A stretch of 63,922 bases of DNA, filler included, from Raillietiella orientalis (Eukaryota), in the NCBI GenBank assembly GCA_036172245.1. It is 8 parts of 8 records of this genome, joined end to end, with 100 filler letters (N's around TTAATTAATTAA, not from the genome) between each part and the next. Parts side by side here need not be neighbours in the genome. Positions count along the whole stretch, not along the records: positions 9,222 to 18,331 come from JAYWIR010000285.1; 7 more parts are not named here. The stretch is one strand, 5' to 3'. The stretch's first letter is position 1. Each line of letters begins with the position of its first letter. The notes beneath the pieces were generated by a model. That model made no database searches. It worked only from the letters and a program-made list of their open reading frames with translations, and was not told the DNA's origin. Positions 1 through 18,431 of the stretch are shown one piece after another. The translations under genes and the position numbers were made by a program.

Positions 1-209
1 TAGCTGCCACCCGGTCACGCCGGGGCGTTTATTAAAAATTTTCTTTGATTCCTGCTACGAGGCCTTACTACGGCCAACTCAACTGGACCTGCCGGGTCGC
101 CGGTACGCAGACCGGCGCGACTCTCCTCGGCAGCGGAAGGGGGTGGGGGAAAAAACAAAAAGAAAAATAAAACATAAAAACAAAAAGATTTGGGAGGGTT
201 GGGGAGGGA

Positions 210-3200
210 TCACTGACCATTGGGAGGAGGGTGCATCGTTCGCAGGATGCCCTCGAGGTCCGTCCGTATAATTCCCAGGTGGGGCCATCTGGTCGCAATT
301 CCCAGGTAGCGGACTGCAAGTACGACGGCATCCCTGTCGTGGCTCGGTCTTCCGAGGTTGCTCCAGCACGTCACAATCCCGCGTCCGCAGCAAAGTGCAG
401 CCAGGGTAGCGGCTGGACGCAGGGCATCATGCACGAACAGAAGCCGACAAACGTCTCTGGGCTGGCTGCCCTCCTGGATCCGTAGGGAGGCACGAAAACG
501 TTCCCACAGGGGTCGAAGGGCAGCACAATCAAAAAGGCGGTGGGGGAGAGATTCCCGTTCCCCACACCTGATGCAGGTAGGATCTACTCGACCCCTGGTC
601 CAGTGGTGGCGGCGTGCGTCGCAGGGTAGACCCCAATGCAACAACAGAAGCGCCGACTCCTGCCACTTCAGGGGGAGGATCCTAAAACCAATTAATACCG
701 GGGGCCACTTCAGGTCATCCGGCTGGATGCCGAGTAGCTCGCCCCATCTCTGGAGTCCTCTCGGCTGGACACTAGGGGTACTGGCGTCCGCCAGTTCACC
801 GGTGGACCAGCCTCTGATCAACTTCTCCTTGCCTGCGATGCGGCAGGAGAATTGCCACCTAGGCTTGCGGCTGCTGGAGAGCGCCCTCCTCCGGAAGGGC
901 ATCGCCGTAGCTAGGGGGGTTGTCTCTGTCCACGTGCTTCTCGCGGTACACTGGAGTATCTTCCGCAGAGTGCAGCGGGAATAGGCGCCGCGTCGCAGGC
1001 AGTTCCACATCTCTCCGTTCTTCTGGTTTATCTTCGCCCACGTGCCAGCGGTCTCCTCCAGCCATGCGGAGGAGTTGGAGGGGCTGCATTCCATCCAGCC
1101 GTTTTCCTTTGCCAGGGTTGCCATGCGTCCGAGGAGGAGTCCGCATCTCTTGATCTTCGAGCCGCGGCACAGAAGATGAGACGCGAGACCCTCCGTTCCG
1201 GATACACGGCTGGCAAGGAGTCGGGCCGGAACGCACCATGGGGTGCTCCATAACTTCGCTGCGATGGCCAGGGTGCGCCATCGCAGCTGGATTTCTACTC
1301 TCTCCACCGTCAAGAGGCCCAGACCGCCATCCCGACGTGGAGCACACAAGTCCTTCAGCTGGACTCGGGGCCTCCCTCTTCCCCAAAGGGCAATCCTCAG
1401 GAGGTCCTTCGTCCTTTTCTTCATGTCTCTGGGGACGAAGCAAACAAAAAGCAGGGGGCGGAGGATGGGAGCCGCAAAGGAGTTCCACACCGCGGCCCAT
1501 TCCGGAAGCAGGAACTTGTCTTCCAAGAACGGGCCGATCGCCGTTTCCACTTTTTGGAGGCAGCCGGACCACGCATCCGAAGGGGAGTAATCCCCCAACG
1601 GCACACCGAGGTACTTCAAGCACCTCGCCGAGAAGATCCTCAAACGGACTCAGTCCTGCTGCCCAGCCCACGTCGCACCGACTGGCACCACCGACGACTA
1701 CGCCTTGTTAACCTGCAGTTCGGTTCCGCGGTTAAGCAGGTCGACGAAATCCTCGACTGCCTTTGCCGGGGTGGACATCGGCAACAAGAGCAGAAGATCG
1801 TCGGCGTACGCTGCTACGGCGGGCGTGCCGGGGCACGAGCTCGGCAAGGAAGCCAACGTCACCCTATACGCTCTCAGCACCAACTCAAAGTAGGTGCTAA
1901 AGAGCAGGGGACTGAGGCTGTCACCCTGCAGTATGCCCCGCCGTACCGGCACGCCGTACGCCATTTGACCTCTGAAAGAGATATTGATCAGCGCGCTGCG
2001 CCAGCAAGAGCGCAGGTAGGTCAGTAGGGAGGGAGGGAAGCCCATGCGTCCCAAAAGCTCCAGCAGGAGATCCTGATCCACGCAGTCAAACGCTTTATGC
2101 AGATCGACCGCGATCGCTAGGGCTCCCTTCCCCACCTGGGAGTCCTGTCCCTGCCCGGCTGACGCCCCCAAAGCGGGGCTGCCAATCCTTCCCTCTTCCT
2201 TTTCTTCACTACTCTGCACATGAAACCATGTGCTCGCGAAGAAGAAGTTGGCCTCCATACTTCGCCCGGGAACAGCGTAAGTCTGCTTCGGGCTAATTAT
2301 GGAATTGGCCACCTGCCCCAGACGCGAAGCCCACAGTCCGGCGATCAGCTTGGCGTCCGTGTTCACAATTGTGATCGGACGTCAGTTGCTGAGTTTTTTG
2401 AGGTCTCCTTCTTTCGGAAGGAGCCTCACTCTGGCTGACCAAAACGAGGCGGGTACATCGCCTTCATCTCGGATCAGCCTTGTCAACTGAAGCACCAGGG
2501 GTGTCAACTCTGCCGCGAAGCATTGAAAAAACTCCGCAGGCAGGCCGTCCTCCCCTGGTGCTTTCCGCCTTTTGAGCCTTTTGCTACCGGCGAGAATTTC
2601 GCGGGTGGTAAAAGGCTCGTCGAGGCTTTCCTTCTCCTTCTCCCCTATTGCCGGGGCACCGTTCGGAAGCAAGCGCCGAGAGGCATTTGGGTCCGGGGGC
2701 GCCCTGGCGTAAAGGAAGGAATAATACCGCCGCACGAGGTGCCGTATTCTAGCCGGAGCCGAGTGCTCCCGGCCCTGGTCGTCCAGCAAGCTGGCCGATC
2801 CGGATAGCCAGGCTTGACGTTCGGCCCCGGCTCGGTACTCTGCCAGGCTACGGACATTACGGATCCTCGCGTAACGACGGGCATACAAGTACGCTCGTTC
2901 GTTACGGATCCCCTCCCCAAATCCCCGGGGCAGGAGGTGCAAGGATAACTACTCGCAAAACTCGCGCACCGAGGCCTCAAAAAGGTCCCAAACATTGAGA
3001 TTGCCGAGGGTGACGCCTCTCAGGATTTCGCTAAGGTGTTTCTTCGCATCTAAGAGGCGCGTCCAGTCCCCAGGCAACCGCCACGCCCTGGACGGGGGTC
3101 CCTTGTCGCGCGGGCACACCTCGAATATCAATCTGGAATGGTCAGACAGTTCCGACGCAACTTTCCCTTGTTTGCCGACCCGCGAGCACAGGTCGACGTC

Positions 3201-3935
3201 CAGGAGGACGTGGTCGATGCTGCTGACCATTTCCGGGAGTTCCCCTAACAAGTTACGCGTGCGCACGGCGGCGCACAACTCGTTAGCCGTCCGTTCCTGT
3301 GTGCGTGGCTCACCTGATAGCAGGCGGAGATTGAAGTCTCCCGCTATCAGGTGAGCCACGCGCACGTTCGCTTCCACCAGCCAGTCGTGCTTCAGGCTTT
3401 CCAGGAACGCCGCGCGTTCCCGGTACCTGTTATAACCGCTCGGGGCGTATACGTTTGTTACGACGAGGTCGATCGTGTCGGACCATCTGAGAATCAGCTG
3501 GCCGACACGACCGGCTTCGTCGAAGCGCACGCCCTTCACGGCAGCGTCGACCGCCGGCTTCATGAAAAACGCGACGCCGCAGGTGTATCGGGTGCCGCAT
3601 TGCCACACCAGCCGCCCCCCTGCGATCCTCTCGATCTCCTGAGCGTTCTCCCCGGTGATCACGTGGATCTCCTGCAGGAGTGCCAGGTCGAAGTCACGCA
3701 GGGTGCCTGCCGTGTCCCGTCTGTTGCTGTCGTCGCGCAGCCCGTGGACGTTCCAACATGCCACACGCAATCGACGGCGACAGGCGAGCCCAGGAGTTAT
3801 TCCCGGGAAAGTGGCAATGGGGCTCCCGCCACCTGGTCGGCCGGGACCGATGGAGGCATGGAGGCACCGCCCAGCGGTTCTCCCACCTCCATGGGGGCCG
3901 ATTCCTCGGCGGACCGCAACGGTTGAAGGGAGCAT
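210..3935 (-). pseudogene. ORF2 (APE endonuclease + reverse transcriptase + zinc finger) with three in-frame stops
   Basis: ORF fragments 2949-3935, 2382-2942, 1698-2366 and 210-1643 share one frame, separated by TAG (2949), TGA (2382) and TAG (1698). ORF2 overlaps ORF1 by ~139 nt in the -1 frame. Confidence 0.9.
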
Positions 3936-5817
3936 GCTTCACGCACCTGCTTCCCCTCTTCCATGGGGGCCGATTTCTTGGCTGCGTTGGACGGTACGGG
4001 GGAGCGGTTCACATCTGTCTGCTCTTCCTCTTCCATGACCATCTCCTCCGCAGGCTCCACCGGTGGAAGGGGGAGGCAATGCCCTACCTGCTCCCCCTCC
4101 TCCATGGGGGTGGCCAACTGCTCGGTGGCGGAGTGTGGGAAAATTCCTCCCTCCGTTCCAACGCTGCCGGCTTCCCCCTCGGCTGCCGGTGCGTCCCCCT
4201 CGCTCTTCGTCGGGATGCGCCTCTTTGGATTCTTGGACTTCCGTCCAGTCTTCTTCGGAGGCGCCTCCGTGGAGGAGGACGCACTTCCGGTATCCGGGTC
4301 GTGGTCACCTGTCGGAGGTGCCCTGGTCGCGGCCGGCCTTCGCAAGGCCTTTCGCGCGCCGTTCTCACGGTCGGCGAGTTCGGCCGCGAGCTCTTCCGCC
4401 GCCTCCTGGAAGGCGGCCTCGTCGATCGCGGCGAGCGCGTCGCGCGGTTCCCCCTCTGTTTGTACAGAGGGTTCGCCTTCCGTGATCGCGTTATCGTCGG
4501 CGTCGACGCGGGGGATATCTCCCCCGGTGGCGGTCTCGGGTACCTCCACACGCTCCAAAGCGACCGAACATTCGCGGATCAACGCGCGGCGTTGTCTCCT
4601 ATTTAAAGGAGACGTCGCGGGTTCCGCTGTCGACCCTTCGGTTTTCTTAATTTTCTTGGCTTTAGGCTTCGCCTTCTGCCAGCCTTCGCTCTTTTCAGCG
4701 TCGTCGGTAGATTCCACGACCGGCGTTTGCTGCACGAGCTCGGGCTCCGGCTGTGGGTTCCGTCTCACGGGTGCCTTCGCAGGCTTTTCCGTAGCCCCCG
4801 CGCGTTTCCCTTTGGCCTTTTTCAAGGCAGCGGGATCCGGGGGTTCGCGCTTAGGGCACACTTTGCGGAGGTGGCCCTTCTCTCCACAGAGGAAACACTG
4901 GATCTGAGGGCACCGCTTTTTCAGGTGCCCTGTGGCATCACAGTGTCCACAGTACTTGGGCTTGCCCACGTACCAGACGTCGACGGTCTCGTTGCCGACG
5001 TGTAGTTTGTGGGGTAGCCCACCGTTTTCGTGGACGGTCACACGCGCACCAGCCATGCCACTAAACAATCTTCCGTAACTCTGGAAGACGTTGGGCTTGG
5101 TCCATAGCGCGTGAACCGTTGCGTATTTTCCGAGTTCCTCCTGCACGTCGGCTTTCGACATGCGGAGGGTGACTCCCGTGAGGCGCGTCACCATAGAGCG
5201 ATCCTCCGTTACCGGGAAAACCTTTCGGCCTTCCAGTGTGATTGGCGTATTCAGGAGGTGTTGAGCAAGGCTTGCATTTCCGCAAGTCACCTCCACCCGT
5301 TGACCACCACTCAACACGGAAAGACCTTCCAGGTCTTCCTCTTTTACATTCAGCCGCTGCAACTCCCTTTCGAAGTTGCGAGCGGTGTTCCCCACAAACA
5401 GATTGCCTACCTTGTATATCAGGGACGGCTTGTATCCCTGCTCTAGGTAGGCTTTCTGCTTTGCGAGGGCTGCAGGAGATGGGACTGCAGCCACTGAAAT
5501 CCAGGTCTTCGGCGATGCCGAAGACGCATTCGAGGGTGCAGGTGCTCCCTTTTTCAAGGAGGCGGTTGCGCCTTTTTCCAGGGTTGCGGTTGTCCCCTTT
5601 TTCAAGGGGGCGGTTGCACCCTGTTCCAGCGGGGCTTTTGCCCCCTTTTTCAAGGGGGCCTTTGCCCTCGCTTCCGAGGCGTTAATTGCCCCCTTTTTCA
5701 GGGGAGCGGCTGCCGTCCCCTCCGTGGGAGCGGTTGCCCCACCTCCGTGGGATGGGGAGAGGAGCAAGCCTCTCCCCCTCCTATATCCATCGCGGTGTCC
5801 TCAGACATTTCTGCCAT
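3797..5817 (-). CDS. Retrotransposon ORF1 (Gag-like nucleic-acid-binding protein)
   Basis: 656-aa open frame with CGHCDATGHLKKRC and CFLCGEKGHLRKVC knuckles. The likely true ATG is at 5817 (MAEMSEDTAM...), offset by an apparent 1-nt loss in a G run near 5737-5740. N-terminal APLKKGA repeats and C-terminal PMEEG repeats are present. Confidence 0.85.
5541..5710 (-). repeat. Imperfect 24-bp tandem repeats in ORF1 encoding (A/T)APL(K/E)KGA
   Basis: Repeated cccctttttcaagggg-type units on the + strand; translation reads APLKKGA.APLKKGAKAPLEQGATAPLKKGTTATLEKGATASLKKGA. Confidence 0.8.
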
Positions 5818-5906
5818 TGGACACCGCAGATGCTTCACACACAAACACAATCGAAATCAACCGCTTTACACCGGGCGCGGAGGAGCGCTACAAGAACACG
5901 TCCGCA

Positions 5907-8268
5907 CGTCAAGTTGATAGCAGGGCTATGGGCTTCGCGTCTGGGGCAGGTGGCAGAATCCGTAATTAGCCCGGAGCAGACTTATGGTGTTCCTCGGCGA
6001 AGTATGGATGCCAACCTCTTCTTCGCAAGCACATGGGTGCACCTGCAGAGAAGAGAGAAGAAAGGGATAGGGAAAGTCGGCAAACCCACATTGGGGCCGC
6101 CAGCCGGGCTGGGAAGGGAACCCCGGGCGGAAAGGGGGCCCTAGCGCTCGCAGTCGATCTCCACAAGGCGTTCGACCGTGTAGACCAGAAACTCCTCTTG
6201 GAGCTCCTGGGTCGCATGGGCTTCTCACCTGCCCTGATTTCCTACCTGCGCTCTTGCTGGCGGAATGCGATGAATACCGTCTCTTGCAGTGGTCACAAGG
6301 TGTATGGCGTGCCGGTGCGGCGGGGCATAAGGCAGGGAGATAGCCTCAGCCCCCTGCTCTTCAGCACCTACTTTGAGTTGGTGCTGAGAGCGTACAGGGT
6401 TACTTTGGCCCCATTGCAGAGCTCGTGCCCCGGCACGCCCGCCGTAGCAGCGTACGCCGACGATCTTCTGCTCTTGTTGCCAATGTCCACCCCGGCAAAG
6501 GCGGTCGCAGACTTCTTCGATCTGCTCAGCCGCGGGACCGGACTGCAGGTTAACAGGGCGAAGTCGTCGGTTGTGCCAATAGGTGCGGCGTGGGCAGGGC
6601 AGCAGCACTGGGTCCGTCTGGGGATCCCCACGGCGAAATGCTTCAAGTACCTTGGTGTGCCGTTGAAGGACTACTCCCCTGCGGAAGCGTGGTCCAGCTG
6701 CCTCCAAAAAGTTGAGACGGCGATCGGCCCGTTCCTGGAAGGCAAGTTTCACTTGCCGGAACGGGCCGCGGTTTGGAACGCCTTCGCGGCCCCCATCCTC
6801 CGCCCTTTGCTTTTTGTTTGCCCTCCCACCGTGGAATCCAAGAAGAGGACGAAGGACCTCCTCCGTATCGCCCTTTGGGGCAAGGGGAGGCCCCGAGTCC
6901 CACTGAAGGACTTGTGCGCTCCGCGTCGGGACGGCGGTCTTGGCCTCCTGACGCTTTAGCGCGTGAAGAAGCAGCTGCGGTGGCGAACCCTCGCCATCGC
7001 AGCGAAGATGTGGTGCACCCCTTATTGCACTCCAGCCCGCCTCCTGGCCAGCCGTGTGTCCCGGTGCGATGGACTCGCGTCTTTTCTTCTCAGCCGTGGC
7101 CGGAAGATGCGAAGATGCGGCCTACTGCTCGGGCGCATGGCAACATTGGCCAAGGAGAACAGCTGGATGGTTTGCTGCCCCGCCAACTCCCCCGCCTGGC
7201 TGGAGGAAAATATTGGAACGTGGGCAGTGGTTAACCAGACAAGCCACGAGACGTGGAATCGTCTCCGATGCAGCCCCTACGCCCGCTGCACGCTGCGGAA
7301 TCTCCTGGAGAGTCCAGCAAGATGCACGTGGGCAGAGACGACCTGTCTAGCTACGGCGCTGCCCTTCCTGAAGAGGGCACTTCACAGCAGCCGGACGCCA
7401 AGGTGGCAAGTCTCCTGCTGCATCGAGGGACGCGAAAAGTTGATCAGCGGCTGGACAACAGGAGAACTAGCAGACGCCACGACTCCGAGCGTCCAGCCGC
7501 GAGGACTAAGAAGATGGGGCGTGCTGCTGGCCATCCCTATGGATGTGCTGAAGTGGCCCCCGCTTCTTCAGGAATCCAGGATCCTGCCCCTTAAGTGGAA
7601 AGAGTCGGCGTTGCTGTTGTTGCATTGGGGTTTACCCTGCAACGCACGCCGCTCTCACTGGACAAGAGGAGTTGTGGATCCTGCGTGTGTCAGGTGCGGA
7701 GAGCGGGAATCGCTCTCCCACCTTATTGTGGACTGTGCTGCCCTTCGTCCCCTTTGGGAACGGTTCGGGACGACCCTCGGGCTCCCTACGGACAGCACCC
7801 CCAGAGAAGTTCTTCGGCTCCTCTTCGTGAAGGACGCACTGCAGCCAGCCGCAGCCATCGCAGCCTTGTGCTGCGTCCGTGGCATCGTGGCGGCATGGAA
7901 CGACGCCAACAACGGAGGAGTGGGTCCACAGGCGAGGGATGTCATCCCGTATGCCCAACGCTTCTTGCGGAGAGCTGCTGGATGGCCCCAACTGGGGAAT
8001 ATACGGATGGACCTCGATGGCTTTCTCCAACGGATGGGCCCTCCTCTCAGCGAACAGTGATCCCTTCCCTGCCCCCCAACCTCATTTGTTTGTTAGCCTT
8101 TTTGTTTTTATTTTTTTTTTCCCCCATCCCCTTTTGCTGCCGGGGAGTGCCACGCCGGGCTGCGTCCCGGCGTCCTGGTAGGACCCGTGCATAAGGCCGT
8201 GAGCGGGGCCTGGTACCGCAATTGTAGAGTTTTTTATAAATAAACGCCCCGGGCGTACCCGGGTGGCA
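5907..8268 (+). mobile_element. Tx1-like retrotransposon copy B: RT to 3' end, decayed
   Basis: Begins at VKLIAGLWASRLG and is colinear with copy A ORF2 (DLHKAFD, YADD, CVRCGERESLSHLIVDC). It has a frameshift near 6120-6135 and a TAG at 6957. The 3' UTR is homologous to copy A's. Confidence 0.92.
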
Positions 8269-9121
8269 ACGCCGAATCCCCGGGGCAGACGTTGCACAGG
8301 GAACTGTTCGCAGAACTCCCGGACCGAGTCCTTAAATAGGTTTCAATCCGCGAGACTCTGGAGGCTGACGCCTCGCAGGAATTCGCGAAGATGTTCTTTC
8401 GTTCCTGACAGGCGCGTCCAGTCCCCTGGCATACGCCAATCCCTGGATGGCGGTACCTTGTCGCGCGGGCGCATCTCGAATACTAACCGGGAATGGTCCG
8501 ACAGCGTCGATTCAACTGTCCCTCGTTTTCCGACCCGTGTGCACAGGTCTTCGTCGAGGAAGACGTGGTCCACGCTGCTGACCATCCCGCTTGTTTCTGT
8601 CAACAAGTTGCGCGCGCGCATGGCGGCGCACAACTCGTTGATCGCGTTACCCTGTGCTCCGGGCTGATCTGAGAGCAGACGGACGTTGAAATCCCCTGGT
8701 ATCAGATGCGCCTTTCGCACGTCCGCGTCCACCAGTCATTCGCGCTTCAAGGTTTCCAGTAACGCATTGCGCTGCTGGTATCCCCGTTTACCGCTAGGAG
8801 CGTACACATTGGTGACGATGAGGTCGATCGAATCGGATCATCTGAGAATCAGTTGGCCGATCCGTCCGTCGTCCCCAAAGCGCACGCCCTTCACGGCCTC
8901 GTTAATGGCTGGCTTTAGGAAGAACGCGACACCACAAGTGTTGCGGGCGTCGCATCGCCAGTACAACCGCCCTCCCGCAATCGTTTCGATCTGCTGGGCG
9001 TCTTTTGCGGTGATCACGTGGATCTCCTGCAAAAGTACCAGGTCGAAATCTCGCAAGGTGGCGGCTGTATCTCGTCTGTTTACGTCGTCGCGCAGCCCGT
9101 TAACATTCCAACTGGCCGCGC
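8269..9121 (-). mobile_element. Tx1-like retrotransposon fragment C: endonuclease domain, decayed
   Basis: Translates to WNVNGLRDD, LQEIH, NVYAP, GDFN, VDH, SDH ... LPRGFG, homologous to copy A 2920-3770. Three in-frame TGA codons. Cut by the contig end. Confidence 0.9.
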
Positions 9122-9221: not shown

Positions 9222-9454
9222 TTAGCGTGAATATAACGTATGAGTCATCCGTTGTTGGTATTGTGTATTATATTGATGATTGATGAAAAGGCTTCTGAGG
9301 TGTGGGGGGTGTAGTGCATGGAGATAATAATGCCTGTAATTAGTTGAGTAATTAAAAGGATTCCTATTATAGAGCCTAGATTTCATGAGTAGGAAATATT
9401 TGATGGTATGGGTAAATTGATTATATGTTTGAGTTTTTTATTAAGGTTTGTTAT
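9222..9454 (-). CDS. cob: Mitochondrial cytochrome b, 5' part
   Basis: In invertebrate mitochondrial code: INLPMPSNISYSWNLGS...GIIISMHY...NGWLMRMFHA. Confidence 0.93.
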
Positions 9455-9888
9455 TATAGGAGGGAACGGAGTGGTGCTTTATTTTGTAAGGTTATGTATG
9501 GAATAATGATTAATGTTAATATTAGGAAGGATATGAGAAATCAAGTTATTGGAATGTTAAATAGTGATAATATAATTTTTGATGTATATGATGAGGAGGG
9601 AAAGGTAGGCTGGAATGAATGAGGTAAGAGGAGTAGTAGGGGAGTGAGGATGAGTGGGGTTTTGTTGAATGTAGATAGTTCATTATATGTTAGGGATGTT
9701 ATGTAAGAGAAGATGATTAAGATTCCTCCGACGTAGATGAGAAATATGATAATGGCGTATCATGATGACATAGAAAGAAGGTTGATAGTGATGGCAATGG
9801 TTAATGAAGTTATTGCGAGAAATAAAGCTATAATTATTGGGTTTGTATATGAGCAGTAGAGGAGTGATGTAATTGTAATTATGAGTAT
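9454..9888 (-). CDS. nad6: NADH dehydrogenase subunit 6
   Basis: SSWYAIIMFLIYVGGILIIFSYMTSL motif, C-terminal APLR, and position next to cob. Confidence 0.9.
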
Positions 9889-9957
9889 GCAAGGGGTTAA
9901 TGACTATGCTCTGGAGATTTATTGATAGATAGTCCAGGACTAAAATTAGTGGTAGAA

Positions 9958-10233
9958 ATAGGTATAGTAATTGTATTTATATTAGGTTTATGGAGATTCT
10001 TTATGAATAAGCGGCATGTTTTAAGAAGGTTATTGAGGTTAGAAATGATAATGTTAGGTGGTTTGGGTTATTTTTTTTTGGAGGAGATAAGTGTAAGCGG
10101 TAGTGGGCATGAAATTTTGTTTATAATGGTGTCGAGTATTTGTGAGGGGGCTATGGGGTTGTGTTTGATTGTTCTTATTAGTCGAAGTGTTGGTAGTGAT
10201 TATTGTAAATCTATTAGTATTATTGGATGTTAG
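9958..10233 (+). CDS. nad4L: NADH dehydrogenase subunit 4L
   Basis: KRHVLSSLLSLE...ICEGAMGL...SRSVGSDY; overlaps nad4 by the typical ATGTTAG. The start is approximate. Confidence 0.9.
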   Translation: MGIVIVFILGLWRFFMNKRHVLRRLLRLEMIMLGGLGYFFLEEISVSGSGHEILFIMVSSICEGAMGLCLIVLISRSVGSDYCKSISIIGC

Positions 10234-11357
10234 GAATTATGGTGTTTATGTTATTTATGAGGGTAGGTATTGGGTATGGCTGGGGGATGGTGTGTTGGGG
10301 TATTATGTTTTTGTGAGTTATGGGGTGTATATGTAAGGAGCAATGTTTGGGTGGGGGTGGCATGGTTGATAGGGTGAGATATTGCTTGTTATTGATAAGT
10401 GTGGTGTTGTTTTTTTTAGTGATGCAAAGTAGTACGGGTGTTAATGGGGAAGTGGCGTTGAAAGTGGCGGTGTTGATTTTGGGTGTGTTTGTAATTTACA
10501 GGTTTGTGAGAGTTGATTTTTTTATGTTTTATGTGTTTTTTGAAGGTAGAATAATTCCTATGGTTTTAATTGTTGTTTGATGGGGCTATCAAAGGGAGCG
10601 GTTTAGAGCTAGTGTTTATATATTTGTTTATACGGTTTTTATGTCTTTGTGATTTTTAATTGGTATTGTTAATTTTGTAGATGATAGATTAGTTGTTAGA
10701 ATATTGGACGAAAAATGGGGTTGGAAGGTTTAGTATTGGTGGGGGTTTTTTTTGTAAAATTGCCAGTTTATGGAGTTCATTTGTGGCTTCCAAAGGCTCA
10801 TGTGGAGTCTATTTCTTATGGTTCTATAATTCTTGCTGGAGTTATGTTGAAATTAGGGGGTTATGGAATAGTACGATTGTTTGTAAAGTATAATTATGGG
10901 GTTATAAGATTGTGACTGATGGGGGTGAGAATAGTGGGTGGTGTAGTAAGTGGTTTAATGTGTTTTCGACAAGTAGATTATAAAGTAATTATGGCTTATT
11001 CATCAATTTGTCATATGAGAGCAATCGTAGGAGGGAGATTAGTAGGAGGTGAGATGGGTTTAATAGGGTGTGTTTTAATGATGGTGGCACATGGATATGT
11101 ATCTTCTGGTTTATTTTTTATTAGTGGTTTAGTGTTTGAGTTATTGGGGAGACGGTCGATGTACTTGAGGGGTGGAATGAGGTTGAGTTGTAGTAGGATA
11201 GGAGGTTTGATTATGGTATTGTGTTTTTTAAATATATCATGTCCTTTAAGATTGGGTTTGTTAGGTGAAATTATAATGTATATGGGGATGGTGAATGTGG
11301 TGATGTATGTGGTGTTGTATTTAGGTATTATTACTATAGTTATATTTTTATGTTGAT
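10227..11357 (+). CDS. nad4: NADH dehydrogenase subunit 4 (frameshift near 10700, shortened)
   Basis: [46 protein letters not shown] and AHGYVSS motifs. Confidence 0.92.
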
Positions 11358-11411
11358 GTCAAGATAGTTTAATAAGAATAACGATTTGTGGTATCGTAGG
11401 TAGTTGTTGGC
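11358..11411 (+). tRNA. trnH: tRNA-His(GUG), T-armless
   Basis: Anticodon arm ACGAT-TTGTGGT-ATCGT, lying between nad4 and nad5. Confidence 0.85.
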
Positions 11412-12816
11412 TTTGAATTATATAGTGGTATTGGCTAGGATGATAGCCGTGAATGTAAGTTTGTGATTTATTTGTTGAGGTAGGGTGATGATGATGGAAT
11501 GATCATTGATAAGGTTAGGGGGAATGGAATGAGGTTTGTTGTTTATTTTGGATGATAAATGTTTATTGTTTATGAGGTATGTAATGGTTATTTCTTTTTT
11601 AGTGATGGTGTATAGATGGGAGTATATTGAGTGGAAGAAGAAGTGGTTTTTTGTGTTAGTGTTTTGGTTTGTGGTGAGGATGTTATTGTTAATTATGAGT
11701 GGTAGTTTAGTAACTGTTATTTTGGGTTGAGATGGACTGGGTATTATTTCGTATTGTCTAGTTATTTTTTATATAAATTGTAATTCTAATTATGGGGGTA
11801 TAATTACTTTTTGAGTAATCGTGTAGGAGATAGAATTTTATTGATAGGTATTGGGTGGTTGTTGATAAGGGGCACTTGGAGGTTTAGCAGGTTAGATACG
11901 GGTGGTTGATGTTTTTGAATTGTGGTGTTAATGAGAATGACTAAAAGTGCTCAGCTACCTTTTAGTGCGTGATTACCAGAGGCTATGGCTGCGCCAACGC
12001 CAGTGTCGGCTTTAGTTCATTCATCGACGTTAGTAACTGCGGGGGTGTATTTGATGATTCGATTTAATGAAATTGGGATGGTGAGCAATGTAGTGATTTA
12101 TGGGGGTCTTTTAACGAGGGTATATTCGGGATTAATGGGAAGATTAGAGGTTGATGTAAAGAAGATTATTGCATATTCAACGTTAAGGCAGTTAGGTATG
12201 ATGTTTATGGGGTTGGGGTTAGGTATAGGAGTGTTAGTATATTATCATTTACAAGTACAGTTAATGTGGCTTTGAGTGTTATCTATAATGTAAGGATTAT
12301 GGGATTAGTGGGGTTTCCTTTTTTGAGGGGTTATTATAGGAAAGATTATTTAGTGGAATGGATATGATACTCTATGTGGGGGGGTGTGGCGGAAGTTTTT
12401 ATTTTTGTTGGGTTGGTATTAACGGTGGTTTATGGATATCGAATATTAGGTAGAGTAGTGGGTGGTGCTGGTAATGTAGAGAGAAATGTTAGTATAAAAG
12501 AATAATTGTTGGTTTATTATTTGTGGGTATTGCAAGTTTGTTTGTAAGCTGGGGGGATGTGGTAGTGGTAGTTATGGGTTTGAAGTTGATAAGGGGGTTG
12601 ATGTTGAGAAATTGATTAATGTATGTTGGCATGGTGGTGGAGATAGTTGATAAGGGGTGAATGGAGTGAGGGGGTGTGTGGTATGTGGGGGTAATTGATA
12701 CTGTAGGTAAGAAGAGTATTGTGTATAATGTTATGGAAGGTAAATATTTTATTGGTTATTTTATTATGTGTTGTTTAATGTGAATGATTCTTGTGAATGA
12801 TTTTTTATGGAGTTAA
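11412..12816 (+). CDS. nad5: NADH dehydrogenase subunit 5 (frameshifts and an internal deletion)
   Basis: [52 protein letters not shown] and GFPFLSGYYSKD. Breaks near 11810 and 12255-12290. The start is approximate. Confidence 0.92.
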
Positions 12817-12981
12817 GATTAAATGGTTGGAGTTAGATTGGGTTATAATTGGTGTTGGTATTTTATGGGGTTGTATTGTTATAATGGAGGGGGCAACGGG
12901 GTTTAATTTGTCTCGGAATCCAAAACGGAATAAGATTTTTAATTTTATGTTGAGTCATATCTCCGGGAGTGTGCTAGTAAG

Positions 12982-13030
12982 AGACGAACTTAAGGTTAGG
13001 TCGAAACTAACTGTGTTATCACTTTTGTCT
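12982..13030 (-). tRNA. trnR: tRNA-Arg(UCG), T-armless
   Basis: Anticodon arm GTTAG-TTTCGAC-CTAAC; AGAC/GTCT acceptor ends. Confidence 0.8.
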
Positions 13031-13365
13031 AAGAATATTCATGAAATGGAACCAGTGTAAAGTTCATATTTTAATCTTAAGATTAAGAAGAGAATTAGTG
13101 ATGTTAATGCAATTGCTGAAGAGAGTGTGAGGGATAATGGTAGGAGTGGGAGGGGAAGAATGATGGCTAGTTCAATATCGAAAATTAAGAAAATGATTGT
13201 AATTAAAAAAAATTGGATGGAGAATGGGAAGCGTGCATTGTTTTTTGGATCGAATCCACATTCAAAGGGAGTTGAAGTATTGTAATTGAATTGAGGTGTA
13301 ATTTTAATGATTATTGCAAGAGAGGTAATGATGATGATAATAAGTAGAGATGGTAAAAATAATAT
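13031..13365 (-). CDS. nad3: NADH dehydrogenase subunit 3
   Basis: TPFECGFDP...FPFSIQFF...FLIFDIELA motifs. Confidence 0.93.
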
Positions 13366-13377
13366 TTCTTGGTAGAA

Positions 13378-13430
13378 GAGACAAAATGGTAGGCCACTGT
13401 TAAGGGATTAGAAGTCCCTGATGTTGTCTC
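13378..13430 (-). tRNA. trnS1: tRNA-Ser(UCU), D-armless
   Basis: GAGACAA/TTGTCTC acceptor stem; AGGGA-CTTCTAA-TCCCT anticodon arm. Confidence 0.85.
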
Positions 13431-13453
13431 ATTGTAAGATGTATAGATTGGAG

Positions 13454-13509
13454 TAAAATTAGAAATTTTTGTTTGCAAAACAAATGTTATTATTTTAACT
13501 ATAATTTTA
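13454..13509 (-). tRNA. trnA: tRNA-Ala(UGC), T-armless
   Basis: TTTGT-TTTGCAA-ACAAA anticodon arm; TAAAATT/AATTTTA acceptor. Confidence 0.82.
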
Positions 13510-13510
13510 G

Positions 13511-13565
13511 GTCTTTTTAGCTTATATAGAGCGAAGCGTTGAAAGTGCTTAGGAAATAGTGGACA
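13511..13565 (+). tRNA. trnF: tRNA-Phe(GAA), T-armless
   Basis: AAGCG-TTGAAAG-TGCTT anticodon arm; GCTT/GAGC D stem. Confidence 0.8.
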
Positions 13566-13580
13566 ATTGGTAGGAAATTT

Positions 13581-13629
13581 GAGTTGGGGGACTGATTATC
13601 ATTAACAGTGATATGCTTAAGCTTAACTC
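13581..13629 (-). tRNA. trnN: tRNA-Asn(GUU), truncated
   Basis: TATCA-CTGTTAA-TGATA anticodon arm; GAGTT/AACTC acceptor. Confidence 0.8.
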
Positions 13630-13630
13630 A

Positions 13631-13686
13631 AATTCTTAAAATTTTTATCTTGAAGGGATAATGTGTTGTTTTACACTAGAAGAATT
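13631..13686 (-). tRNA. trnE: tRNA-Glu(UUC), T-armless
   Basis: TTATC-CCTTCAA-GATAA anticodon arm; AATTCTT/AAGAATT acceptor. Confidence 0.8.
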
Positions 13687-13740
13687 ACTCTTTATTACTT
13701 AATAATTGGAAGTTATTTGTACTGTATATACTAAAAGAGT
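13687..13740 (-). tRNA. trnG: tRNA-Gly(UCC), T-armless
   Basis: AATAA-CTTCCAA-TTATT anticodon arm; ACTCTTT/AAAGAGT acceptor; directly after cox3. Confidence 0.85.
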
Positions 13741-13741
13741 A

Positions 13742-14524
13742 TACTCATAGGTATATGAATAAGAATAGAAATAGTCATACAATATCTACGAAATGTCAAT
13801 ATCAAAGAGGGAGCTCAAATGATAGGTGGTGGATGTTAGTAATGGAGAGTGAAAAGATTTGGGTTATAGATAGAATAAGGCAAATGAGGCCGGCAAGTAC
13901 ATGTAAACCGTGGAATCCTGTTGCAATGAAGAATGTTGAGCCAAAGATTGAGTCTGCAATAGAGAAATTTAGTATAAAATATTCTATGGCTTGAGTCATA
14001 AGGAATATTGATCCTATTGTAATGGTAATGAGTAGAGAGAGGAGTGAGATGGAGTAATTTTTTTTTAGGAGGGAGTGATGTGTTCATGTTACTGAAATGC
14101 CTGATCTTAGTAAAAGGATAGTATTAAATAAGGGTACTTCTATGGCTGCGGGTATGGTGAGATTAACTGGTGGTCAAGAAAGTCTAAATTGTGGGTTGAC
14201 TCTTAGTCTAGAGTGAAAGAATGATCAAAAGAAGGAGACGAATAAGAAGATTTCTGAGATAATAAATATGATTATTGCAAATTTAAATGTTTTTATTATT
14301 CTTATCGGAAGAATACCAATAAATGAGGATTCTCGTTTCATGTCTTTCCCCCAGAGGAACATGTTTAAAATTGTGGTTATAATGCATAGGATGATGGGTG
14401 AGTATATTTTGTGTATGAGGCATGTTAGGGAGAGGGTTATTGATGGGAGTGATATAGAGATGAGAATAGGTCAAGGTCTGTATTGGTGGATGAAGAAGGG
14501 TTGGTGGTTTGTTATTGTGGTTAT
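13742..14524 (-). CDS. cox3: Cytochrome c oxidase subunit 3
   Basis: SPWP, FIISEIFLFVSFFWSFFHS, FFIATGFHGLHV and WYWHFVDIVW motifs. Confidence 0.95.
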
Positions 14525-15155
14525 TTTTTTGTGTATAGTGATGTTAGTGTGGTGAAAATATAAGCTTGAATAAAGGCTATGGTGATTTCTAGTATTATAA
14601 TGGGAATGGATGGAATGAGATTTGTGAGTTTGTCGGAGAGTATAACGATAAGGATGTGTCCGGTAGTGATGTTAGCTGTTAATCGTAGTGATAGGGATAT
14701 GGGTTGTATTATTAGTCTGATGATTTCTAGTAAGGGGATAAATGGAGAAAGTGAAGGAGGGGTTCCTTGGGGAGTGAGATGGGCTAGGAAGTTTGAGTAA
14801 TTTTTTATGATGGCGAATATTTGTCTAGATGTTCATAGTGGGATGGCGAGGGATATTGATAGGAATAGATGGGCTGATGAGGGGAATGTATAGGGGGTAA
14901 GTCTTGATAAGTTTAGGAGGGCAATGGTAGTTAGTAAGGCAATAAATATTTTAATTGATGTGGTGGTTTGACGGTGTAGGTTGTTGTTGATGGTTTTTGT
15001 TAATATTTTTATTGGCTCGGCAATGGATAGTTTGGATATTGTCGGTATTAACCATATAGGATAGGAAATGATTAGTAAGATACCGATGGAAGTAGGAATG
15101 AAATATGGTGGGGTTATAGTATAGGGGTCTAGGGGGTGAAGATGGAGTTTATCAT
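14521..15155 (-). CDS. atp6: ATP synthase subunit 6 (1-nt homopolymer frameshift near the start)
   Basis: LTPYTFPSSAHL, AHLTPQGTP and LSLRLTANITTGHI; ATGATAA overlap with atp8. Confidence 0.93.
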
Positions 15156-15295
15156 AGTCATTTGGTATTTCTTTTGTGTTGTATATGGGATAGGGATGGT
15201 CTAATGTAGATAGGGATGAGTAGGGTTATGCTTATGGTTAGGGTAGTAAAGAGGATGTATAGGGGTAGTCAGAATATTGGTGTTAAATGAGGTAT
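15149..15295 (-). CDS. atp8: ATP synthase subunit 8
   Basis: Starts MPHLTPMFW, ends KWLW, and sits between trnD and atp6. Confidence 0.85.
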
Positions 15296-15307
15296 TGAAT
15301 AAATTCT

Positions 15308-15366
15308 AGAATTTATTTTACTAATTACAACTTGACAAGTTATTGTTATTTTTTAACTAAAATTCT
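15308..15366 (-). tRNA. trnD: tRNA-Asp(GUC)
   Basis: TAA-CTTGTCAAG-TTG anticodon region; AGAATTT/AAATTCT acceptor. Confidence 0.82.
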
Positions 15367-16022
15367 AATTTTTGATTATGTGGATAAAATCTTTTGCTCT
15401 TACTGAGTTAAGTTGGATGGGTATGAATCTGTGATTGATGCCGCAAATTTCGGAGCATTGGCCGAATAATACGCCGGGTTTGTCTAGGAAGATGGCTTGT
15501 TGGTTAAGTCGTCCGGGAATGGCATCGATTTTGATTCCTAGGGATGGGATAGTTCATGAATGAAGAACGTCTGATGACGTGATGATTATGCGAATTATTG
15601 TATTATAAGGTAAGATTAGGTGGTTGTCTGTAGCTAGTAGTCGTAGAAGGTTTCTGTTTGGTGTTATGAAGGAGTCGAATTTGGTTTTTTTGAAAGTTGA
15701 ATATTCGTATGTTCAGAATCATTGATTGGCGATTGATTTAATAGTTAGGGAGGGTAGGTAGCTGGTATCTAGGAGATAGAGGATGTGTAAGGAGGGGAGT
15801 ATGATTAGTAGGAGGATGAGTGAGGGTAGGGAGGTTCAGATGAGTTCTATGAAGTGGTTTTTGAGTAATATGAAATTGGTGTAGGAATTGTGAAGGTAGA
15901 TGAAAGTGTTGTACAGGATTATTAAACAGATGATGGTTAGAGTAATTATGATGTAATCGTGTAGTAGGATGAGGTGTTCTATGAGAGGGGAGTATGCGTT
16001 TTGAAATATGAGTGATGTTATT
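15365..16022 (-). CDS. cox2: Cytochrome c oxidase subunit 2
   Basis: [34 protein letters not shown] and [14 protein letters not shown] (CuA ligands intact). Confidence 0.96.
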
Positions 16023-16075
16023 GCTAAATATTATTGATGGATTTTAAGTCCAGTGCATTGAATTGCTATGTTAGT
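16023..16075 (-). tRNA. trnL2: tRNA-Leu(UAA), duplicate copy next to cox2
   Basis: About 36 nt are identical to the 16537-16590 copy, including TGGA-CTTAAAA-TCCA; the 5' half differs. Confidence 0.75.
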
Positions 16076-16122
16076 ATGTTTAGTTATGATGGGTGGATTA
16101 ATGGGTAATTATGAGTGTGGGG

Positions 16123-16527
16123 TTAGAGGATGTGACATGTTGAACTTTGATTTATTATGTAATTTGTGTTGTGGAAATAATTGGTAGATGAGTTGGTTAG
16201 ATTAATTGTTTGTTTAATGATGGGTTGTGGTGTGAGACGGGATATACGATGGGGTTGTTTTATGGCTCATTGTGTGTATGAAGGATATTTATTAATGGTT
16301 GTAGGGTTTTTGACGAGTATGTTGGATTTGGATTTGAAGATTTTGCGAATTGTATGTTTTCATGATTGTAGTCATTGCTTGATGGTTAATTTGATAATTA
16401 GGTGGGGTATGTAGTTGTTATTCAATAGGAAAATGATAGATAGAGATGGGAATGTATATATTAGGGGTGTAAGTAATGGGAGTGCATTCCAAAAGTTTTT
16501 GAGGGTGGAGATTAGTTTTTTTAGTAT
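16123..16527 (-). CDS. 134-aa mitochondrial ORF derived from a cox2 duplicate (function unknown)
   Basis: Open from ATA to TAA in mitochondrial code, with three TGA=Trp codons. WNALP...FPSLSIIFLLNNNYMPHLIIKLTIKQW aligns without gaps to this contig's cox2 WTSLP...[27 protein letters not shown]. Confidence 0.7.
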
Positions 16528-16536
16528 ATTTTTATT

Positions 16537-16585
16537 ACTAAATATTATTGATGGATTTTAAGTCCAGTGCATTAATTCTGCCATA

Positions 16586-16590
<5 letters not shown>
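16537..16590 (-). tRNA. trnL2: tRNA-Leu(UAA), T-armless, directly after cox1
   Basis: TCTAATATGGCAGAAT 5' end typical of arthropod trnL2; TAA anticodon. Confidence 0.88.
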
Positions 16591-18128
<1,538 letters not shown>

Positions 18129-18182
18129 AAGATTTTATATTTTTAACTTTGAAGGTTAATAGTTTATTTAACTTATAATCTT
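18129..18182 (-). tRNA. trnW: tRNA-Trp(UCA), T-armless
   Basis: TTAAC-CTTCAAA-GTTAA anticodon arm; AAGATT/AATCTT acceptor. Confidence 0.85.
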
Positions 18183-18187
18183 AGGGT

Positions 18188-18247
18188 GGTAAAATGGCTG
18201 AGAAGAGCGGTAAATTGTAAATTTATTAATGATGGAATCTTTTATCA
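18188..18247 (+). tRNA. trnY: tRNA-Tyr(GUA)
   Basis: GGTAAAATGGCTGA 5' end; GTAAA-TTGTAAA-TTTAT anticodon arm. Confidence 0.85.
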
Positions 18248-18263
18248 TTAATTTAATATAAAT

Positions 18264-18308
18264 ATTCTTGAGTTTATAGAATTGCAAGTTCTATGTTATA
18301 TAAGAATT
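18264..18308 (+). tRNA. trnC: tRNA-Cys(GCA), apparently armless (~45 nt)
   Basis: ATTCTTG/TAAGAAT acceptor and TAGAA-TTGCAAG-TTCTA anticodon arm, joined by only 6- and 7-nt connectors. Confidence 0.72.
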
Positions 18309-18431
18309 GATTGAGTGGCGGTACAAGGTAGNNNNNNNNNNNNNNNNNNNNNNNNNNNNNNNNNNNNNNNNNNNNTTAATTAATTAANNNNNNNNNNNNN
18401 NNNNNNNNNNNNNNNNNNNNNNNNNNNNNNN

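Follow-up and report, generated by a model that had tools for sequence, protein, structure and literature searches.

A diverged cox2-derived reading frame between two trnL2 copies in the mitogenome of Raillietiella orientalis: a candidate additional mitochondrial gene in an arthropod

The trnL2-cox2 region and its mitochondrial setting

The window analysed here, a stretch of 63,922 nucleotides from Raillietiella orientalis, consists of separate contigs chained by N-linkers, and holds at 9222..18331 the contig JAYWIR010000285.1 (C285; 9110 bp, no strand assigned), one of the two pieces of the mitogenome. Translated with table 5, C285 encodes part of cob, nad6, nad4L, nad4, nad5, nad3, cox3, atp6, atp8, cox2 and cox1. 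On the minus strand, cox1 (16591..18128, intact in a second contig, C282, whereas in C285 the A run at 17330 is one base too long) is followed by a T-armless trnL2(UAA) (16536..16590) matching the single copy of older nuclear insertions, by 460 nt (16076-16535), by a second trnL2 copy (16022..16075) and by an intact cox2 (15365..16021), whose 218 residues include both transmembrane (TM) helices and the CuA ligands and whose closest matches were Armillifer Cox2 at 60-61% identity (the best three of 120 listed). These matches indicate a pentastomid, a group of parasitic crustaceans, at some distance from Armillifer; a cox1 fragment search, in which 8000 candidates were scored, gave 57-67% at best. 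T-armless forms occur among pentastomid tRNAs. The two trnL2 copies form a 42-nt direct repeat, 98% identical and 514 nt apart, and were placed by their D and anticodon arms and their position between cox1 and cox2; ARAGORN reported no tRNA and Rfam two tRNAs elsewhere in the contig, neither calling the two trnL2 copies. The first-pass annotation had described two trnL2(UAA)-like copies around some 460 bp with an open frame of 134 codons including three TGA=Trp codons, and this description holds: the frame runs from 16527 to 16123 on the minus strand (16123..16527), its table 5 translation places the three residues at W52, W56 and W87, and its 134 residues have a net charge of +16, with no Asp or Glu.

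Contig C282 was 99.5% identical to C285 with the same end points, and a third contig, C320 (nad2, control region, rRNAs, nad1 and the remainder of cob), adjoined C285 at both ends, one base short at cob and with a one-base overlap at the other junction. By the stricter count these pieces tile a circle of 15,302 bp, without 18 nt that lie inside overlapping deletions of C285 and C282; when those 18 nt were counted from the nuclear copy on contig C50, the nad5 frame was restored and the estimated circle became 15,320 bp. The accessible part of the published R. orientalis mitogenome description gives 15,320 bp and 33.1% GC (PMC10355681), the same length as our circle, whose GC rounds to 33.0%. 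Since the sizes are equal, the frame and its surroundings appear to belong to the true mitogenome, which would measure about 14.8 kb without them. One DNA sequencing run contained 0.99 of the words of the region; it was possibly the source of the assembly and was therefore not counted as support. A second run contained 0.21 and was given no weight, and none of the runs listed for the region was of RNA.

That the whole contig is instead a nuclear insertion or an assembly artefact seems very improbable. The genome is indeed rich in nuclear mitochondrial insertions (NUMTs; a search of this genome gave 46 matches), another contig (C100) joins the same sequence to nuclear-like DNA, and the standard genes of C285 contain frameshifts and deletions, namely 1-nt slips in homopolymers of cox1, atp6, nad4 and nad5 and losses of 135, 97 and 121 nt in nad4/nad5. 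Most of these faults are however filled by C282 and all of them by the nuclear copy on C50, and the faults of C285 and C282 differ, so that each contig repairs the other. No nuclear flank is present on C285, C282 or C320, and together they form a circle as long as the published one, which indirectly places the frame in the mitochondrion; the frame also recurs in two older independent insertions, which implies its presence in the mitochondrial lineage. The copies on contigs C50, C33, C220 and C5 show the nuclear flanks and neutral decay of NUMTs, a combination not seen at the locus itself.

Some further features of these contigs were observed. Over 11341-12497 of the window, nad4/nad5 lack stretches of ~100-260 nt that are not the same in C285 as in C282, and cox3 of C282 is identical to the C50 nuclear copy; we read both as assembly or polishing faults, although deleted mitochondrial molecules are also possible. 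The 325 nt between cox3 and nad3 (13366-13690) showed an rRNA-like conservation against C50 (8 differences) and contain a weak Rfam tRNA match (13454-13508); the stretch is probably a relocated tRNA cluster. Just past the nad5 stop, at 12834-12898, four gaps (3, 5, 4 and 64 nt) relative to C50 are common to C285 and C282, consistent with a spacer that has been shrinking along the extant line. Positions 1-2475 of contig C152 hold a piece 99.96% identical to C320 (rrnL-nad1 region) joined to a ~277-nt satellite, of a kind that also fills 36500-61000 of the window, and this join may be a recent insertion or a chimeric one. The first contig of the window (1-9121) is GC-rich, and its end frame (8898-9121, minus strand) looked LINE endonuclease-like by eye.

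Derivation from cox2 and nuclear copies of successive states

The homology of the frame to the neighbouring cox2, previously put at about 40 residues, is real and gapless, and the length was underestimated: the aligned stretch covers 58 residues (13-70 against Cox2 62-119) with 38% identity (tblastn E 2e-9 over the fetched loci), and BLASTP of the pair of proteins gave E 5e-5 over 40 residues. Together with the tandem position beside a duplicated trnL2, this homology identifies the frame as a cox2 paralogue. Loss of the first TM helix and of the CuA ligands (H, CxExC, H, M) was confirmed, the ligands being missing in all three states of the ORF that we could compare (extant, C50 and C33). A Pfam scan of the ORF returned neither COX2_TM nor COX2, with a single sub-threshold match at E 1.7, whereas cox2 matched both families. 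Glu59 of cox2 aligns with bovine Glu62, described in the accessible part of its source as a critical residue at the entry of the K-path (PMC10095113), and no ORF state has an acidic residue at this site. Two TM helices, a cupredoxin/CuA domain and the K-path Glu, the features of a functional Cox2, are thus all absent. Because the CuA domain is missing and the Glu62 equivalent lost, the predicted product is not a catalytic oxidase subunit and would neither coordinate copper nor take part in electron transfer.

When the C33 ORF is set against cox2 codons 6-15, 18-22 of 30 nt at its 5′ end agree, indicating that the ORF joins the first residues of Cox2 to the start of TM2; the present start codon, ATA, corresponds to Cox2 Met5, and the conserved core (codons 1-65, 16333..16527, minus strand) fuses Cox2 residues ~5-15 to ~60-114. 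In cox2 itself, a 9-nt direct repeat lies in frame around TM1, its two copies 132 nt apart. As the nuclear copies described below show, the trnL2-cox2 unit (514 nt) was duplicated in tandem and the upstream copy lost the CuA domain and, in frame, TM1, the latter possibly through slippage between the 9-nt repeats plus one further codon. This copy then diverged fast (36-42% identity to Cox2) and came under purifying selection on 65 codons, with its C-terminus reset by stops and frameshifts. Codons 13-65 are about 30-42% identical to any Cox2 state and 66% identical between the C33 and extant ORFs, which suggests that most of the change occurred early.

The nuclear copies provide a time series of this process. 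The ORF is present in full on C50 (93%) and, at 75%, on C33, whose four copies were counted once since their identical core points to one insertion later multiplied; C5 has a 116-nt ORF fragment, and C100 starts with a near-identical piece. Synonymous distances of cox1/cox2 from the extant sequence were 0.14-0.16 for C50, 0.58-0.62 for C33 and 1.0-1.3 for C220. Of 16 loci examined at the trnL2 junction, two were ORF-bearing controls, one had no junction and 13 were informative. None of these 13 older insertions contained the ORF at the junction: in ten cox1, trnL2 and cox2 were joined directly, one had trnL2-cox2 without cox1, and two broke off at or just past the tRNA. The nine that were measured were also more diverged in the 5′ part of cox2 (60-77%, vs. 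86% for C33). As older insertions lack the ORF, and Armillifer and Linguatula have the single-copy order too (PMC12202648, accessible part), this order is ancestral, and the duplication would fall between the C220 and C33 insertions, provided that the mitogenomes from which these came belonged to the direct line or to one close to it.

The nuclear loci also showed features of their own. On C33 (100000-141000 and 272000-276000), a 4.6-kb cox1-cox3 insertion occurs four times, three of them at ~18.3-kb spacing, and was thus amplified as part of a tandem repeat in the nuclear genome. That C33 holds a second mitochondrial lineage was considered and rejected, the 4.6-kb pieces lying in GC-rich nuclear DNA and carrying frameshifts. 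C50 (54100-68950) holds nearly the whole mitogenome (~14.8 kb, 94-97% identical) inside nuclear DNA, and against it dN was higher in cox1/cox2 (0.022) than in nad4, nad5 and cob (0.002-0.008), although these genes usually rank the other way round. The first 2327 positions of C100 (1-2327, at the start of a 198-kb contig) are 99.9% identical to 14208-16534 of the window and meet nuclear-like DNA 1-2 nt from the predicted 5′ end of a processed ORF message (16535); this junction could be due to chance, to a chimeric join or to an RNA-derived insertion.

Substitution pattern, tail and start of the frame

The first-pass annotation took the openness of the frame as an argument for its retention, an argument that proved weak. 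In 5000 dinucleotide shuffles of the 447-nt spacer, at least 134 stop-free codons were obtained in 1.7% (P = 0.017) and at least 78 in 42%, hence openness, taken alone, exceeds the chance level by a modest margin, and the support lies in the pattern of substitutions. Long open frames are in fact not rare on such a G-poor strand, which favours reading the ORF as a decaying remnant of tandem duplication and random loss, that is a cox2 pseudogene open by chance. This reading is consistent with an encoded length that differs in every snapshot, with the degenerate second trnL2 and the irregular start context, and with the C5 fragment, which differs by five synonymous and two non-synonymous changes and carries one stop in 38 codons (possibly acquired after insertion); it has arthropod parallels in an amphipod cox2 fragment (PMC8700879) and a copepod cox2-like ORF (PMC13252756), as given in the accessible parts of those reports. 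The substitutions within the core nevertheless argue strongly against a remnant, and we regard it as improbable.

Codons 1-65 have neither stop nor indel in the C50 and C33 copies, so that the stops or frameshifts in relatives that would have marked a dead copy are absent from these two. Of the 14 changes that separate the core from its C50 copy, 10 were synonymous and 4 non-synonymous (dN/dS 0.09, Fisher p 4e-5); for C33 the counts were 25 and 29 (dN/dS 0.19, p 2e-6). With transition bias and mutational base frequencies built into a codon likelihood model, dN/dS was 0.13 (p 6e-4) and 0.22 (p 5e-5), respectively, close to the 0.21 and 0.16 obtained for cox2 with the same model. Neutral simulation of 14 changes under the observed spectrum (which included cox3 sites where C282 is chimeric with C50) yielded a mean of 9.6 amino-acid changes, with P = 7e-4 for four or fewer, and hit a stop in 76% of the runs at the C50 distance alone. 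The synonymous excess is therefore present in two comparisons and by three methods, although these represent only two independent full snapshots (C50 and C33) which have the extant branch in common and involve small counts. Neutral change after insertion only raises dN/dS ratios. Coding in a shifted frame was rejected, as the two shifted frames gave dN/dS of 1.2-8.2 by codon likelihood; 14 segments of standard genes gave 0.01-0.25 against C50, a set that leaves out nad3 (wrong frame) and takes cox3 from C285.

Across the three ORF states 40 of 65 core residues are invariant. Within codons 13-65 the invariant residues number 35, of which 15 are common to Cox2 and 20 differ from it, which indicates that the constraint is new, rather than left over from similarity to Cox2, and on the same ground gene conversion from cox2 was rejected as the cause of conservation. 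Indels in the C33 comparison numbered three in the tail and none in the core. The value near 1 expected of a remnant is thus far from the 0.09-0.22 found with table 5 against the two nuclear copies, and, as judged from these comparisons, purifying selection on the core reading frame can be taken as established, with a strength like that on cox2. The decaying remnant being strongly disfavoured, the view that the frame encodes a retained new membrane-anchored protein finds support. The ORF has moreover persisted over a synonymous distance of ~0.6, while the two direct tRNA repeats flanking it could presumably delete it in one step.

Constraint on the remainder of the frame is less clear. The tail (codons 74-134, 16126..16308, minus strand) is hydrophilic, labile and predicted to be disordered. 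The encoded length was 84 residues in C50, about 106-109 in C33 (no clear start) and 134 in the extant state. Both nuclear copies have one more base at the A5 run at 16307..16311 (minus strand), which sets the present tail frame, from which it follows that the present tail arose when a single nucleotide was lost along the extant branch; on this alignment the length of 134 residues is accordingly recent. C50 has 18 more nt in a Lys-Ser repeat, the indels of this linker being multiples of three. Tail and C50 differ by 8 synonymous and 7 non-synonymous changes (dN/dS 0.20, p 0.004), and codon likelihood gave 0.36 (p 0.074) against C50 and 1.28 against C33, values that make constraint on the tail suggestive. 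Downstream, the non-coding spacer between the ORF stop and the second trnL2 (16076..16122, minus strand) differs from C50 at 8 of 36 sites in 16087-16122, approximately the synonymous rate of the ORF.

A real gene shorter than 134 residues would be compatible with the explanation we favour, either because the missing A is an assembly slip (six A at 16307-16311 would encode 78 residues) or because the tail is passively carried. C285 has four other 1-nt homopolymer slips, the two nuclear copies agree on the extra base and the tail likelihood is of p 0.074. On the other hand, the five A are found in all three near-identical contigs (C285, C282 and C100), whose other slips differ and whose reads are possibly common, and a further base would bring the circle to 15,321 bp, against the published 15,320 (PMC10355681, accessible part). 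Among the tail changes that could be assigned to a branch, synonymous and non-synonymous ones stand at 6:1 on the extant branch, as compared to 1:4 on the C50 branch, with three unplaced and an outgroup that aligns poorly. We consider a shorter gene unlikely, though less so than a remnant. A +1 ribosomal frameshift occurs in other animal mitochondria, and one at the A-run site in the ancestors is possible and unneeded.

The beginning of the frame is irregular. The ATA directly behind the first trnL2 is out of frame and opens, as read from the sequence, a mini-frame of four codons (16521..16535, minus strand) whose stop overlaps the ATA of the ORF by 7 nt, a geometry resembling the atp8/atp6 overlap. 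From the predicted end of the tRNA it is 8 nt to the in-frame ATA, and the homologous codon in C33 is AAA; initiation would therefore need an 8-nt leader, re-initiation or a non-standard codon. As to the tRNA punctuation previously claimed for both sides, two copies do flank the frame, but the 3′ side is uncertain, as the second trnL2 looks degenerate. Its anticodon is TAA in the extant sequence, CAA in C50 and TCA in C33, and its acceptor stem is weaker, hence it is probably a remnant or may act only as a processing signal, and the ORF and cox2 may share one message. The 98% identity of this copy (16022-16075) to the first over 42 nt, where the older states differ at the anticodon and nearby, was observed separately and makes a recent gene conversion between the two copies possible.

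Putative product and comparison with known systems

The ORF contains a sole hydrophobic segment, residues 16-34 (16426..16482, minus strand), deriving from Cox2 TM2; with a mean hydropathy of 1.59, vs. 2.26 for Cox2 TM1, it would be a marginal TM helix. Amphipathic helices lie on either side (hydrophobic moments of 0.46-0.63 before and 0.55-0.71 after it). The second, basic and spanning residues 42-68 (16324..16404, minus strand) according to the hydrophobic moment and a low-confidence model, replaces the aromatic segment of Cox2, whose equivalent stretch has a moment of 0.15. AlphaFold returned three helices and a disordered tail with a pLDDT of 53 (low confidence). Three basic residues precede the segment and seven lie within the 35 residues after it, a bias suggesting that the C-terminus is likely in the matrix; this is the reverse of Cox2 TM2, suggests a product that is either inverted or lies along the membrane surface, and counts against a simple Cox2 mimic. 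The Trp aligned to bovine Trp104, the electron entry site, is retained and stands now among lysines. A search with the three-state alignment found no homologue among 108 candidate proteins of 46-235 residues at E<=10. A profile search of 1.84 billion representatives returned two matches (E 4e-5 and 7e-5, with 5-6 short matches each), both rejected as homologues, the one examined being a repeat protein with a chance amphipathic-helix match.

On these grounds the ORF probably encodes a young, lineage-specific, non-catalytic, membrane-bound mitochondrial protein under purifying selection, and would be the fourteenth protein gene of the mitogenome. Its mRNA would be cut at the tRNAs from a polycistronic transcript and then translated, and two elements would hold the product in the inner membrane, the segment inherited from TM2 and, on the membrane surface, a basic amphipathic helix. 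If the protein is made, our preferred guess, somewhat short of an even chance, gives it an accessory, assembly or damping role in complex IV, favoured because the residues common to Cox2 cluster on TM2, whose retained face might bind Cox1 or partners of Cox2 assembly. Other membrane roles, lipid- or nucleoid-binding ones and a selfish function would take the remaining share.

The selfish function is the main functional rival: a chimeric Cox2 fragment might favour maternal transmission or harm male function, as in plant cytoplasmic male sterility (CMS) or with the sex-linked mitochondrial ORFs of bivalves. According to the accessible part of one account, CMS genes are often small transmembrane chimeras of OXPHOS genes and a duplicated atp8 is regarded as the source of the mussel M-orf (PMC9083018); the fast early change, the lost K-path Glu and the labile basic tail of the ORF would fit such a factor. 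The one assembly, however, offers no second sex-linked mitotype, its diverged copies lying amid nuclear DNA and being mostly broken, and a dN/dS as low as that of housekeeping genes over a long span is less like a gene in conflict. We thus rate a selfish or sex-linked factor as quite improbable, marginally more so than the decaying remnant. The most specific proposal, a new arthropod mitochondrial gene born from a crippled cox2, whose non-catalytic product regulates complex IV or joins it as an accessory subunit (or else is a selfish factor with a sex bias), and with every step of its birth kept as dated nuclear fossils, is advanced tentatively and with more doubt than confidence.

In the accepted view, the mitogenomes of Bilateria retain 13 proteins and lose their duplicates, and the extra-gene exceptions come mostly from bivalves with sex-linked mitochondria. 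If our reading is true, a mitochondrial duplicate has been neofunctionalised in an arthropod, outside the bivalve setting and with a known parent gene. The analysis further shows that, where relatives are lacking, the NUMTs found in one assembly suffice to date a mitochondrial ORFan and to put it to the test. R. orientalis is an invasive snake parasite, and the gene would sit undescribed in a published mitogenome; no description of the ORF was found in the literature, pentastomid papers included, within the accessible texts and a thin coverage of subscription journals, and the published R. orientalis map or GenBank annotation may mark the interval. The Armillifer and Linguatula mitogenomes have, in the accessible part of their description, the cox1-trnL2-cox2 order and strong strand skew seen here (PMC12202648). 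In the same source trnL2 and cox2 of A. moniliformis are 0 nt apart, in contrast to the 514-nt unit of R. orientalis, and in all six species treated there genes and control region fill the genome within ~100 nt, leaving no room for such a unit.

Partial cox2 duplicates have been described in crustaceans, in the amphipod Macrohectopus branickii (PMC8700879) and as ORF3 of the copepod Leptodiaptomus (PMC13252756). The amphipod copy is identical to cox2 and recent, unlike the diverged ORF found here, and the copepod ORF3 is treated as a probable non-functional duplicate, as opposed to an ORF under selection; the accessible parts of the two reports gave no selection test for either fragment. The split cox2a/cox2b of Campsomeris (Dielis) wasps is also an arthropod case in which the N-terminal part of Cox2 forms a separate protein. 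The wasp halves, however, complement each other and replace Cox2, as far as the accessible account details them (PMC5374615), whereas R. orientalis has an intact 218-residue cox2 and no separate CuA half, so that neither the lack of a full-length cox2 nor the complementary halves of a split gene are observed. Small membrane proteins assembled from pieces of OXPHOS genes are known as the chimeric CMS ORFs of plants, which are linked there to male sterility and restorers (PMC9083018, accessible part), rather than to the long purifying selection recorded here.

In bivalves, a duplicated cox2 (cox2b) is reported, in the accessible parts of the sources, from the M-type of Musculista senhousia (PMC3176263), from Arcidae (PMC9727918) and from the F-type of Ruditapes philippinarum. 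As in R. orientalis, an extra diverged copy stands beside the original and a new role has been proposed for it. The bivalve copies are nonetheless full-length or extended (813 nt; 1179-1431 nt), whereas here TM1 and the CuA domain were lost, the host is an arthropod, and doubly uniparental inheritance (DUI) is not known and left no sign in this single assembly. DUI mussels' F-orf and M-orf, as well as further ORFans of mitochondria (PMC3730352, PMC9083018, in the accessible texts), are likewise small lineage-specific proteins with an N-terminal hydrophobic segment. The DUI ORFans are however sex-linked and their origin is mostly inferred, whereas in R. orientalis the parent gene, the duplication and the successive states are visible.
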